In this document: one piece after another, positions 1 to 10,274 of the stretch
Layout: each line of letters opens with the position of its first letter
Numbering within the stretch: the first letter of the stretch is position 1
Source of the DNA: a virus
Reading direction: 5' to 3' (one strand)
Length of the DNA stretch: 10,490 nucleotides
UHGV virus genome: UHGV-0050635
Notes under the pieces: generated by a model
Seen by the model: the letters and a program-made list of their open reading frames with translations, nothing else
The model's database searches: none
What the model was told of the DNA's origin: nothing
Translations under genes and position numbers: made by a program

Positions 1-611
1 TTTTCAAGGATCGAAACTTCTGGGTTTTCGTCATATTTATTGTGGGGACGTGGTCTTTCTATAACATTTTTGATCAACAACTTTTTCCTGTCTTTTATGC
101 AGGTTTATTCGAATCACACGATGTAGGAACGCGCCTGTATGGTTATCTCAACTCATTCCAGGTGGTACTCGAAGCGCTGTGCATGGCGATTATTCCTTTC
201 TTTGTGAATCGGGTAGGGCCAAAAAATGCATTACTTATCGGAGTTGTGATTATGGCGTTGCGTATCCTTTCCTGCGCGCTGTTCGTTAACCCCTGGATTA
301 TTTCATTAGTGAAGTTGTTACATGCCATTGAGGTTCCACTTTGTGTCATATCCGTCTTCAAATACAGCGTGGCAAACTTTGATAAGCGCCTGTCGTCGAC
401 GATCTTTCTGATTGGTTTTCAAATTGCCAGTTCGCTTGGGATTGTGCTGCTTTCAACGCCGACTGGGATACTCTTTGACCACGCAGGCTACCAGACAGTT
501 TTCTTCGCAATTTCGGGTATTGTCTGCCTGATGTTGCTATTTGGCATTTTCTTCTTGAGTAAAAAACGCGAGCAAATAGTTATGGAAACGCCTGTACCTT
601 CAGCAATATAG
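1..611 (+). CDS. MFS transporter, LacY/oligosaccharide:H+ symporter family, C-terminal fragment (5' end lies outside the window; frame is open from nt 3, stop TAG 609-611)
   Basis: Reading frame is open from the window edge to 611. Translation aligns by eye with the LacY C-terminal half (GTR.YGY...NR.G.KNALL...KYS/ITS.F..R.S.TI.L motifs) and contains multiple hydrophobic helices. Probable host flank gene. Confidence 0.8.
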   Translation, partial: FKDRNFWVFVIFIVGTWSFYNIFDQQLFPVFYAGLFESHDVGTRLYGYLNSFQVVLEALCMAIIPFFVNRVGPKNALLIGVVIMALRILSCALFVNPWIISLVKLLHAIEVPLCVISVFKYSVANFDKRLSSTIFLIGFQIASSLGIVLLSTPTGILFDHAGYQTVFFAISGIVCLMLLFGIFFLSKKREQIVMETPVPSAI

Positions 612-1140: not shown

Positions 1141-1341
1141 TTACCCATTGGCGCGGCTTAAGAGCTTATTTTTGAATTCACAATGGTCACGATATAACCA
1201 TCTTGCTCGTCCGTGGATAACTTTGGCTTTTGGCAGGTCGCCGGACTTAATCCGGTCGTAGATGAAGGTTTTACCGAAGCCAGTATCGGCCATGATGAAT
1301 TTCAAATCAACCAGTGAATCAGGCTGTAGTTCGTGTTGCAT
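1141..1341 (-). CDS. AlpA/Xis-family small DNA-binding protein (putative excisionase or prophage regulatory protein)
   Basis: 66-aa ORF with ATG at 1341 and a GGAGA motif 8 nt upstream. The translation LVDLKFIMADTGFGKTFIYDRIKSGDLPKAKVIHGRARW matches the AlpA/phage-excisionase HTH signature (TG.S.STIY ... G.FP.P.K.G.RA..W). Confidence 0.7.
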   Translation of the reverse strand: MQHELQPDSLVDLKFIMADTGFGKTFIYDRIKSGDLPKAKVIHGRARWLYRDHCEFKNKLLSRANG

Positions 1342-1898: not shown

Positions 1899-2180
1899 TT
1901 ACTTCTTGGCGTTCTGTTCATCCATATCGATATACCATGGGTTGCTTCCCTTGGGCATGTTTAACGACTGCTCGCGATAGTATCTGATGCGCTCCATGAA
2001 ATACTCGCGTGAGTGCTCAGGTTGCTCTCATGATACCTGCTCAGTGATAACAGGTATGTTAAGGCGCTCTCTGTACTCCATGCCTGATGCTGCAAGGTCA
2101 ACGTTTACCTTGTTCTGTTTTTCTTTCGATTTCTCGGCGATGTTATGCCTGACATTGTCAACCCGCCTCCTTCTGAACAT
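1899..2180 (-). pseudogene. Small ORF interrupted by a single in-frame TGA (50-aa N-terminal ORF 2028..2180 plus 42 further in-frame codons to 1899); possible nonsense pseudogene or a 50-aa basic protein
   Basis: Manual translation of the - strand: MFRRRRVDNVRHNIAEKSKEKQNKVNVDLAASGMEYRERLNIPVITEQVS-TGA-EQPEHSREYFMERIRYYREQSLNMPKGSNPWYIDMDEQNAKK. No convincing RBS. Overlaps the 3' end of the 2158..2400 gene by 23 nt. Confidence 0.25.
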
Positions 2181-2400
2181 AACGGTTATAAATCAGTCCC
2201 TGAGGGCCATAAGGAAGCGGGATGTGCAACTCCTCTGGTTCAGAAACTATCCATTCTCCGGCCATCTCCGCTGGAGAGGTAATGATAAGTTGTTTGCTAA
2301 TAAAAGGACCACTCCTCTCAACAACAAGCTTACCATCTTCATTAATAAAAGCTTGGATGTCAGGTGTGCTTCCACACTTGGTGATGCAGCGTTTGAACAT
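2158..2400 (-). CDS. Hypothetical small protein (80 aa, MFKRCITKCGSTPDIQAFINEDGKLVVERSG...); moron-like gene with its own promoter. Alternative start at 2415
   Basis: ORF on the - strand with ATG at 2400 (upstream in-frame ATG at 2415). Immediately downstream of an extended -10 promoter element inside an AT-rich intergenic island. Confidence 0.55.
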   Translation of the reverse strand: MFKRCITKCGSTPDIQAFINEDGKLVVERSGPFISKQLIITSPAEMAGEWIVSEPEELHIPLPYGPQGLIYNRYVQKEAG

Positions 2401-2424
2401 TTTGTGTCCCCCCATTTTATGTAC

Positions 2425-2445
2425 GGGGTAATTATAACACATTGA
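2425..2445 (-). promoter_or_regulatory. Candidate sigma70 extended -10 promoter (TGTTATAAT on the - strand, forward 2431-2439) driving the 2158..2400 gene
   Basis: Perfect TGnTATAAT read on the - strand, in a ~75% AT intergenic region (2443-2526). No good -35, as is typical of extended -10 promoters. Confidence 0.4.
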
Positions 2446-2526
2446 AATATAGTAATATTTGACGTAGATTTCTTTTGATCTATAAGCGATTTTTTAATGC
2501 TTTTAAGTTATAAATACTTGTTTTCA

Positions 2527-3198
2527 TCACCCATCTTGCTGCGGTGCTACTATTGAAAAGTGCTCACACCCTTTAGCCCAAATAGTTTTGATAGTTGTCC
2601 AACTGACTGGAACCTTGATTTCGATTCTCCCGCTACAGTCACAAGTTTCGCAATCATCATCACCAAAGCATTCCGGGCAGCTTATAAACGTAGTTTCTGA
2701 AAATTCACCGGATAGCACACCCTTAGCGCCGTTCTCGGCTGTTAGTCTCTTCGGCACCATGACCCAACCATCCGGAATTACCGGAGAGTTGCCGGGTTCT
2801 TTAATGTGCAAGCGAGGCTCACCATCTTTTGGCTCAGGCCACTGGCGCTCCATGTTGATCTTCAATTTATCTTCCATAGCAGCGGTAATTTCAGCATCGC
2901 TGATGCCAGCACGGCGCTGTGAATCCCACAACAGAAACTGCATATCAGCCCACTCGCTAAGATCGTCTGGTTCGGCTGCGGCTTCCAGTGCCTCTTTTGA
3001 GAGGTGTTTCAGTGGACCAATGGGGCCAACGCAGCCAAATGTGGAGTCAGACCATTTGGCATGCTCGTGGCGAATCTGTTCGCGTTCCAGTGATGCCAGT
3101 GCAATTCGTGCCAGTTCCATTTGTTCGCCACGAGTAAGCCCGTTTTCAAGCGGATTTTTAATGAATAATTCGATACGTTCTTTGGTAATAGTGGTCAT
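2527..3198 (-). CDS. Putative MazG-like (all-alpha) dNTP/NTP pyrophosphohydrolase domain protein with a Cys-rich C-terminal domain (223 aa)
   Basis: ATG at 3198 with AAGGTGA upstream. The N-terminal region (EQMELARIALASLEREQIRHEHAKWSDSTFG ... DMQFLLWDSQRRAGISDAEITAAMEDKL) resembles the phage dATP/dGTP pyrophosphohydrolase/MazG-like fold. The C-terminus carries CPECFGDDDCETCDC. Family assignment is from recalled motifs, not a search. Confidence 0.5.
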   Translation of the reverse strand: MTTITKERIELFIKNPLENGLTRGEQMELARIALASLEREQIRHEHAKWSDSTFGCVGPIGPLKHLSKEALEAAAEPDDLSEWADMQFLLWDSQRRAGISDAEITAAMEDKLKINMERQWPEPKDGEPRLHIKEPGNSPVIPDGWVMVPKRLTAENGAKGVLSGEFSETTFISCPECFGDDDCETCDCSGRIEIKVPVSWTTIKTIWAKGCEHFSIVAPQQDG

Positions 3199-8920: not shown

Positions 8921-8948
8921 GAAATAAAAAAGGGGCGAAAGCCCCTTA
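8921..8948 (-). terminator. Rho-independent terminator of the repressor transcript (- strand)
   Basis: On the - strand, stem aggggc-tttc-gcccct is followed by TTTTTTATTTCC. It overlaps the c2 stop codon. Confidence 0.7.
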
Positions 8949-9596
8949 AGGAAGGTTTGCTAGCTTGGCATCAACGACAACGCCAATGATTTTACAGTTC
9001 CCATTGATTTCAATCATTGGGTATTGTGGATTGAGTGGTTTCAGGAATTTTCTACCGGCATCAATAACTAACTTTTTGAATGTCGCCTCGTTTTCTCCTT
9101 CAAGTTTGGCGACTACCAACTTTCCATTACGTGGTTCGACTTCTGGGTCGACGAGAATAATCATCCCCTCAGGAATACTCAGTCCTGCCGGGGCAGTCAT
9201 TGAATCGCCTTTAACGTCGAGCCAAAAAGAGTCTTCAGAACAATCTACCGTTGTGTCGTACCAGTTATCTATTGCACGCCTATGATATGGCTCTACAGCT
9301 TCCATCCAACATCCTGCGCTTACCCAACTAATTAGAGGATACGAACCTCTTGGATCATGCCTGCTGTGATAGGCAATGTTTGAAAGACTATCCTCTCCTT
9401 TCAACAGGTAATCAGGGGAGCACTGCAAAGCCTTGGCTAAGGCCAATAGGTTTTCGCCATTGGGCTCAGTTTCAGATCGCTCCCATTGGGAAATAGCAAC
9501 ATTAGACACGCCAACCATCTTGCCAAGGGCAGCCTGCCTAATCTTGAGTTCTTTTCTGCGAGCGCGAATACGCTCACCCATCAGTTGTGTATTCAT
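8946..9596 (-). CDS. c2: Phage repressor, P22 C2 type (LexA/S24-like autocleaving repressor with N-terminal HTH), 216 aa
   Basis: Translation MNTQLMGERIRARRKELKIRQAALGKMVGVSNVAISQWERSETEPNG...IIGVVVDAKLANLP is nearly identical to my recollection of P22 C2. P22-type operators flank it on both sides. Confidence 0.9.
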   Translation of the reverse strand: MNTQLMGERIRARRKELKIRQAALGKMVGVSNVAISQWERSETEPNGENLLALAKALQCSPDYLLKGEDSLSNIAYHSRHDPRGSYPLISWVSAGCWMEAVEPYHRRAIDNWYDTTVDCSEDSFWLDVKGDSMTAPAGLSIPEGMIILVDPEVEPRNGKLVVAKLEGENEATFKKLVIDAGRKFLKPLNPQYPMIEINGNCKIIGVVVDAKLANLP

Positions 9597-9959: not shown

Positions 9960-10000
9960 ATATAGGAAAATTAACAAATGGCACAAGCAAGCTACAGCAA
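9960..10000 (-). promoter_or_regulatory. Candidate pRE (cII/C1-activated establishment promoter): TTGC-N6-TTGC on the - strand (forward 9987-10000)
   Basis: The - strand reads TTGCTGTAGCTTGC overlapping the 5' end of c1, the classical arrangement of the cII binding site at pRE. Confidence 0.5.
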
Positions 10001-10274
10001 GCCAACACAGCGAGAAATTGATCGCGCTGAAACTGATTTACTCATCAACCTGTCAACGCTTACCCATCGCGGTCTGGCAAAGATGATTGGCTGTCATGAA
10101 TCGAAGATAAGCAGAACGGACTGGAGATTTATTGCTTCGGTCTTGTGTGCTTTCGGAATGGCATCAGACATCAGTCCGATTAGCAGGGCTTTTAAGTATG
10201 CGCTTGATGAAATCACAAAGAAAAAATCCCCGGCCGCCACCGAGGATTTTAAGCAAATTGATATGCAATTCTGA
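9978..10274 (+). CDS. c1: cII-like transcriptional activator (P22 C1 type), 98 aa
   Basis: HTH region plus C-terminus [18 protein letters not shown] paralleling lambda cII (..KKRPAATERSEQIQMEF). Position after cro and nutR. Confidence 0.85.

Follow-up and report, generated by a model that had tools for sequence, protein, structure and literature searches.

orf80, a conserved small gene with a predicted extended −10 promoter and a dead theta partner, as a probable moron-type unit of lambdoid Escherichia coli prophages

Introduction

Does a small gene at the far end of a prophage early operon depend on that operon for its transcription, or does it belong to a unit with a promoter and a terminator of its own? 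The question is raised by orf80, a gene for a protein of 80 amino acids (aa) in the UHGV virus genome UHGV-0050635, of which we analysed 10,490 nucleotides (nt), a stretch called here the window. It comes from a P22-like/lambdoid Escherichia coli prophage, of which it forms the left arm; orf80 lies distally in the leftward early operon, on the operon strand.

Independent accessory transcription units in phage genomes are known as morons (PMC3594210), and those of lambdoid phages were treated by Cumby, Davidson and Maxwell (2012; PMC3594210). A sequence-only reading of the window had proposed a unit of this kind at 2158-2526, a promoter-gene-terminator cassette with a role in lysogenic conversion or defence. 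We consider it probable, at roughly 60%, that orf80 does belong to a moron-type accessory unit; this would consist of an extended −10 promoter with an upstream box, orf80, a dead gene for the DNA polymerase III theta subunit and a terminator of its own, and would be transcribed on its own in the repressed prophage and by read-through during lytic growth.

Results

orf80 encodes a conserved protein

2400-2158, minus strand: orf80, 80 aa, WP_000476264.1; start codon ATG 2400, stop codon TGA 2160-2158

The start codon is preceded by a G-rich ribosome-binding site, GGGGGGA, at 2413-2407. A longer open reading frame (ORF) of 94 aa starting at ATG 2442 was considered and rejected; its start codon falls within the −10 element, and the diverged homologues lack the extension, so that 80 aa is the right length. 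RefSeq annotates WP_000476264.1 in the 80-aa form, as a hypothetical protein.

The sequence-only reading had described an ORF of no recognisable family, and searches of Pfam, NCBIfam, PADLOC and PDB sequences did indeed give no match; the sole family found was PHROG 9613, labelled 'unknown function'. At E ≤ 1, PADLOC-DB 2.0 returned no family for orf80, for its homologue P0005 or for three neighbouring proteins, and the literature contained no mention of WP_000476264.

Diverged homologues of the ORF were found. A word-indexed search gave only E. coli proteins almost identical to it, variants with frameshifts or fusions, and a single homologue at 70%; exhaustive HMMER over 1.84 billion representatives together with a profile search added four further lineages of 74-79 aa and 45-52% identity, one of them from Pectobacterium. 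Some large repeat proteins in the HMMER results (P0014-P0016) were additive-score artefacts and were discarded. No additional lineage came from scans of GTDB genomes and of metagenomes. Across eight aligned family sequences 15 positions are invariant. When orf80 was compared with its homologue in locus L038, the differences fell mostly at third codon positions (34, against 19 at first and 18 at second positions), and the ratio of nonsynonymous to synonymous substitution rates (dN/dS) was about 0.19, which indicates purifying selection. orf80 is a real, conserved protein.

The protein is acidic (isoelectric point about 5) and non-hydrophobic, and it has no membrane segment. Its structure was predicted with AlphaFold2, as had been proposed from the sequence. 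An alignment of four sequences gave a mean per-residue confidence (pLDDT) of 42, which was unusable; the prediction improved after HMMER had added three lineages, and with the eight-sequence alignment we obtained a six-stranded all-beta model (pLDDT 78.9; predicted template modelling score, pTM, 0.68). The nearest structural neighbours of this model are PilZ and split beta-barrel folds, generic small-barrel matches of which none is informative. The cyclic di-GMP motifs RxxxR and (D/N)xSxxG occur neither in the 80-aa sequence nor in the family alignment, and the fold matches include no nuclease, NTPase or toxin fold.

Several database 'proteins' of the family (P0002, P0003 and P0006-P0010) are frameshifted or fused by deletions. 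In the fused forms orf80 is joined to an out-of-frame theta start peptide or to a 77-aa upstream ORF, or it is reached by read-through from the DUF550 gene upstream. These variants show that small rearrangements are ongoing around the cassette.

A box and an extended −10 element are conserved upstream of orf80

2401-2526, minus strand: AT-rich non-coding spacer with the putative orf80 promoter region, 27.0% G+C
2465-2482, minus strand: inverted repeat TAGAT-N8-ATCTA overlapping the CTACGTC box, as read from the sequence
2461-2467, minus strand: CTACGTC box, candidate regulator-binding site, around −44 to −38 relative to the predicted start
2439-2431, minus strand: extended −10 element TGTTATAAT, a perfect match, with its hexamer at 2436-2431
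2422-2424, minus strand: predicted transcription start, placed by the sigma-70 position rule

Sigma-70 promoters start transcription 7-9 nt past the −10 hexamer, and this rule was used to place the start. The AT-rich intergenic region and the perfect minus-strand TGnTATAAT in front of the ORF, both pointed out from the sequence, are as described: the segment 2443-2526 has 21.4% G+C against 44.8% in the whole window, and TGNTATAAT occurs once in the window, in the match at 2439-2431. One TGnTATAAT in a stretch of 10.5 kb does not exceed chance; conservation alone gives the putative promoter its significance.

We therefore rely on the aligned upstream regions of orf80 from the window and from L036, L038, L039, L040, L049 and L046. 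CTACGTC is invariant in all seven, and the layout they have in common is CTACGTC, 20-21 nt, TGnTAnnnT and then 36-50 nt to the ATG. The −10 hexamers, in the order just given, read TATAAT, TATAAT, TATGCT, TATGAT, TATGAT, TATGAT and TATATT; the TG of the extended −10 is kept in six of the seven, the variant copy L036 having CG. The composite of box, spacing and extended −10 is present in all five deep lineages tested, in which the protein identity is 45-70%. It appeared in no more than 5e-5 of the shuffles of each region of about 130 nt, and the box alone in 0.1-0.4%. Synonymous sites between the deep lineages are saturated (proportion of synonymous differences, pS, 0.62-0.96), the flanking genes differ among the lineages that keep the box and the −10, and the remaining spacer sequence is not conserved between deep lineages. 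Retention of the box and the −10 in spite of saturated silent sites supports the promoter reading.

Within the window the exact sequence TCTACGTC has a single occurrence. The box is duplicated with a period of 21 nt in L039, L040 and L049, and the inverted repeat that overlaps it is perfect in these three and in the window; L036 and L038 have an imperfect form (TAGAC), and L046 has none. A scan of IMG/VR with the composite pattern returned 80 loci, nine of which were the known E. coli cassette while the rest resembled chance matches in coding DNA; there was no second gene class with this promoter.

In the L046 lineage, at positions 2540-2560 of L046, a second perfect TGTTATAAT is found 9 nt upstream of the CTACGTC box. 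A candidate promoter on the plus strand of the window (TTGACG-16-TATAAG, 2459-2486) was rejected; TTGACG occurs in only three lineages, and in all of them the −10 is without its final T. A search of Rfam gave sub-threshold noise only.

orf80 is followed by a theta pseudogene

2180-1899, minus strand: pseudogene of DNA polymerase III theta (HolE/Hot-like), overlapping the end of orf80 by 23 nt
2155-2153, minus strand: native start codon (ATG) of theta, behind AGGAGG at 2171-2166

The N-terminal 50-aa ORF of the remnant matches PF06440 with E 3.4e-15 and 56 bits (cut-off 34.6), and PHROG 1105 matches the remnant with E 2.4e-32. After repair of the stop codon, NCBIfam NF008207 scored 91.4 bits, just under its cut-off of 97. 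The gene carries two lesions. An in-frame TGA stands at 2030-2028, where intact thetas have Arg, and one nucleotide is deleted after 2147, past ATGTCAGGC, at codon 3/4 (GGCAT in the window, GGCCAT in L038). The theta of the window begins ATG-TCA-GGC at 2155-2147, and intact phage thetas begin MSQWNIAAKSK, MSDWNIAAK or MSGHSIAAKSK; with one base missing relative to L038, the native start is out of frame.

In all of the E. coli genomes that were inspected, the PGAP annotation of theta reads 'internal stop'. Among the 31 E. coli-type loci in IMG/VR theta is damaged in 30, by the TGA in most of them and by frameshifts in L034, L035 and L036, and orf80 is intact in an equal number; L033, the only copy whose theta has no internal stop, has a nonsense codon in orf80.

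Theta follows orf80 in two lineages only, the window type and L038. Since L038 has the same order of the two genes, the pairing predates the split between these lineages, although it is not universal. Phage theta genes commonly stand behind a non-coding spacer of their own.

Terminators and the exchanged block

1879-1859, minus strand: first intrinsic terminator, with its tail to 1850; 8-bp stem with 5 G-C pairs, T-rich tail
1848-1829, minus strand: second intrinsic terminator (feature 1820-1848)
2527-2763, minus strand: 3' part of the upstream gene, coding for the C-terminal cysteine-rich domain of the DUF550 protein; travels with the cassette in E. coli prophages

The 83-nt terminator stretch folds with a z-score of −2.4. 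What had been described from the sequence as a one-gene unit within 2158-2526 that ends at tandem terminators has to be redrawn. The gene and the two terminators stand; the terminators, however, lie about 280 nt past 2158, with the theta pseudogene in between, and the unit comprises two genes, orf80 and theta, the second of which is dead. L039 and L040 have a strong intrinsic terminator directly behind the orf80 stop codon.

The two terminators belong to different blocks. On either side of the segment 1865-2763 phages N7 and Stx1a_EH2115 resemble the window, but they lack this block, inside which the first terminator lies. The second terminator belongs to a flanking conserved block common to many lambdoid and Shiga toxin (Stx) phages: 1820-1864 has matches at about 98% in 933W, VT2-Sakai and other phages, and N7 matches the window at 1807-1864. 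In place of the block N7 has about 313 nt, which code for a different C-terminus of the upstream gene, with the breakpoint near 2764. The exchanged E. coli block thus holds the C-terminal domain of the upstream gene, the spacer, orf80, the theta remnant and the first terminator.

The C-terminal domain of the upstream gene, of a CxxC type resembling the DnaJ zinc finger, is about 99% identical across four different N-terminal parts (L001-L004). These N-terminal parts in E. coli prophages are DUF550, Ead/Ea22, DUF551 and 'DnaJ', and a common C-terminal domain behind differing N-terminal parts represents domain shuffling in the ea gene region.

Distribution and genomic positions

Complete E. coli genomes with the whole 721-bp unit (1820-2540) number 84, the identity being 99.7-100%; E. 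coli IAI1 (NC_011741.1) carries the unit at about 810.6 kb. Of 5426 complete E. coli genomes, 88 (about 1.6%) contain the 126-nt spacer, every time in full length and together with the gene. Among the isolated phages of INPHARED we found neither the gene (by tblastn) nor the spacer. Related prophages of other Enterobacterales, e.g. in Pectobacterium, also carry orf80.

The position of the gene varies between lineages. In the window type it lies distally in the leftward early operon, close to xis. In L040 and L049 a 158-aa gene, xis and int come immediately after it, in L046 it belongs to the nin region, ahead of HNH, NinG and Q, and in L005 and L038 it follows the replication genes of a Rac-like prophage. 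Apart from theta there are no conserved neighbours, the neighbours in the other lineages sharing no family. Downstream of orf80 the window has a 114-aa gene and L040 a 158-aa gene; compared as possible counterparts, these two genes proved unrelated.

A possible leader hairpin

2410-2428, minus strand: possible leader hairpin; CCCCGU (2428-2423) pairs with AUGGGG (2415-2410), part of the ribosome-binding site

In the window this hairpin has a predicted folding energy of −10.3 kcal/mol (z −1.8), and 13 of 200 shuffles fold as well. In L038, where the arms are different (UGGUUC/GGAGCCA), the energy is −10.9 kcal/mol with z −3.5, and none of 200 shuffles reached it. In L039 and L040 the hairpin is weak, and in L049 and L046 it is absent. 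Because its 5' arm is placed at or upstream of the predicted start, the hairpin would form only in read-through transcripts and would be absent from RNA started locally. Masking of the ribosome-binding site by this hairpin is a hypothesis only.

The theta genes of Klebsiella phage KO-TP1 (L173) and of L038 have leaders with TATAAT followed immediately by a CCCC...GGGG hairpin that includes the ribosome-binding site, which is the same layout as in the orf80 leader.

Gene context in the window

42-611, plus strand: host LacY-like major facilitator superfamily (MFS) transporter
1141-1341, minus strand: TorI-like excisionase
2527-3198, minus strand: DUF550 pyrophosphohydrolase-domain protein, 223 aa
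6593-7231, minus strand: protein of 212 aa matching Nmad5 (PF18757, nucleotide modification associated domain 5; E 3e-71), in the early left operon
8946-9596, minus strand: CI-type repressor
divergent from the CI-type repressor: cro-like gene
9978-10274, plus strand: CII gene

The leftward early operon, on the minus strand, comprises Nmad5, an Erf/Rad52-like recombinase, the single-stranded DNA-binding protein SSB, Abc2, DUF2737, Ead/Ea22 and the DUF550 protein. It ends with the 114-aa gene and the TorI-like excisionase, which adjoin the host LacY-like transporter gene. There is no integrase gene between the excisionase and the transporter gene; the arrangement resembles the layout of KplE1, with int and xis at opposite ends of the prophage. 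No tRNA genes occur within the window.

Terminator-like sites number 26 in the whole window, mostly on the minus strand, against 10.8 expected from shuffles, and strong ones stand inside the leftward operon (e.g. at 8947, 7986, 7264, 6604, 6458, 6420 and 1408). This pattern fits an antitermination-dependent operon with many separately terminated units.

Discussion

Our preferred account of the locus is as follows. A sigma-70 promoter of the extended −10 type (TGTTATAAT, without a −35 element) would initiate transcription near 2424, and the CTACGTC box just upstream of the −35 position probably binds a regulator. The transcript would run through orf80 and the theta remnant and end at the terminator of the cassette, with that of the neighbouring block as a backup. 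In a repressed prophage the local promoter would be the unit's only source of transcripts; in lytic growth the unit would be read through by antiterminated transcription that starts at the early left promoter. The ancestral unit was probably a two-gene operon, orf80-theta, of which orf80 would be the sole surviving product. Having no enzyme motifs and no membrane segment, the protein most probably acts by binding another protein. The cassette proposed from the sequence thus gains support from the conservation of the box and the −10, from the terminators, from the varying positions and from the absence of the block in N7 and Stx1a_EH2115.

Several points weigh against this account. The pattern TGNTATAAT is expected 0.28 times per window and appeared at least once in 47 of 200 shuffles. 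A recognisable −35 is absent, the hexamer at 17-nt spacing being AATATT, and the terminator prediction for the window gave no terminator upstream that would insulate the orf80 unit. To our knowledge no site of CII, Arc/Mnt, RcsB, SdiA, MetJ, IHF or Lrp fits CTACGTC. The coding G+C is close to that of the surroundings (orf80 45.7%, theta remnant 46.3%, window 44.8%), and the inclusion of the end of the upstream gene makes the block a mosaic replacement and no clean insertion. The E. coli copies of orf80 differ by 11 nonsynonymous changes (one of them nonsense) and seven synonymous ones, which indicates only moderate recent constraint. For the protein itself the searches gave no family of known function, no match to a defence model and only generic small-barrel folds.

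In another reading the spacer would be only a module junction without an autonomous promoter, orf80 being expressed solely through the antiterminated early left operon in lytic growth. The gene is on the operon strand with no terminator upstream, its neighbours (Abc2, SSB, Erf-like, Ead/Ea22, DUF550) are typical early accessory genes, −10-like strings are abundant in AT-rich DNA, and about a quarter of the shuffled windows contain TGnTATAAT by chance. A junction of this kind does not account for a TG/−10 and a box at a fixed distance that are kept across lineages with saturated silent sites and differing flanks, the rest of the spacer varying between the deep lineages, and we regard it as improbable. 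We think it unlikely, too, that the unit is a decaying relic, a former theta-delivery cassette with orf80 as partner that has lost its function and is carried along by block recombination. The two lesions of theta in the window and the different ones in other copies would fit this, as would the orf80 nonsense mutation in the one copy whose theta has no internal stop, the 11 nonsynonymous against seven synonymous polymorphisms within E. coli, the truncated and fused variants P0006-P0009, and the 99.7-100% identity of copies across hosts, which fits a recent spread. Yet 30 of 31 E. coli-type IMG/VR loci have an intact orf80 and as many a broken theta, almost all copies retain undamaged promoter elements, the long-range dN/dS is 0.19, and lineages without theta still keep orf80 and the promoter.

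The role in lysogenic conversion or defence that had been read from the cassette did not find support. A moron for defence, superinfection exclusion or toxin-antitoxin function, with orf80 protecting the lysogen or acting as toxin or antitoxin, would agree with the cassette architecture and with a location in hot spots of accessory genes, and many morons of lambdoid phages encode exclusion functions (PMC3594210). PADLOC, however, had no match for orf80, its homologue or the neighbours. The protein is soluble, acidic and without a membrane segment or secretion feature, unlike exclusion proteins of the SieB, Cor and gp15 type; its model has no informative fold match, and no nuclease, NTPase or toxin fold was found for it. 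The only conserved partner gene is theta, and that in only two lineages. We found no positive evidence for a defence or exclusion role and hold it to be very improbable.

The moron-type unit that we favour can be compared with known systems. Morons of lambdoid phages reportedly include the HK97 gene 15 element and lambda bor and lom (Juhala and colleagues are said to have described them in 2000). As in these, a small accessory gene inside a phage operon appears to be served by a sigma-70-type promoter of its own and by an intrinsic terminator, and the unit differs in position between genomes; presence or absence among related phages is shared in part, the exchange being a mosaic replacement. 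In contrast to them, the coding G+C equals that of the surroundings, only the spacer deviating (27%); the E. coli block is a replacement that carries the 3' end of the upstream gene; and the unit holds a second, dead gene, so that the first terminator follows the theta remnant and not orf80. Most characterised moron products are membrane or surface proteins, whereas orf80 is soluble and predicted to be all-beta.

As to the second gene, theta homologues (PF06440) are also found as hot in P1 and in lambdoid phages such as HK639, KO-TP1 and SEN34; unlike in P1, HK639 and KO-TP1, theta stands behind orf80 in the window type and in L038, and in the window it is dead. P1 Hot, the characterised phage theta, is described in PMC7556043, which cites Chikova and Schaaper (2005, 2007), as expressed both in lysogens and in lytic growth. 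Expression of Hot in lysogens would fit an ancestral orf80-theta operon that was expressed in the lysogen.

Extended −10 (TGn) promoters of E. coli recognised by sigma-70 have, in characterised cases, been sufficient for open complex formation without a usable −35. The orf80 promoter region likewise has TGnTATAAT and no usable −35 hexamer; it departs from a plain extended −10 promoter in the invariant CTACGTC at about −44 to −38, doubled in three lineages. The leader recalls IS10 and IS50, in which transcripts entering from outside are reportedly inhibited by fold-back (a finding attributed to Davis, Simons and Kleckner in 1985): in the window and in L038 the sequence past the −10 is predicted to be complementary to the ribosome-binding site. 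The resemblance is one of prediction: the pairing in the window has a z-score of only −1.8, and four lineages have a marginal hairpin or none.

These features could be joined in one scheme, which we offer as a speculation with little chance of being right in full. The box would be the operator of a regulator and the leader a filter for the promoter of origin, with the ribosome-binding site masked in read-through RNA, so that orf80 would be translated from the locally started mRNA of the lysogen and not from lytic read-through. The protein, ancestrally co-transcribed with theta, would act on the host replisome as a new small protein targeting the epsilon-theta proofreading module.

For the window itself, the analysis corrects the gene map, with orf80 at 80 and not 94 aa and a theta remnant added together with its native start. 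The practical value is modest, and the analysis neither opens nor settles any long-standing question. Only two points are mildly novel, the conserved CTACGTC box and the linkage of orf80 with theta: box and extended −10 define a compact conserved promoter module, and the linkage to theta gives one concrete lead to what the protein does. Should the promoter be active in lysogens, orf80 would be one more prophage accessory gene expressed in the host.

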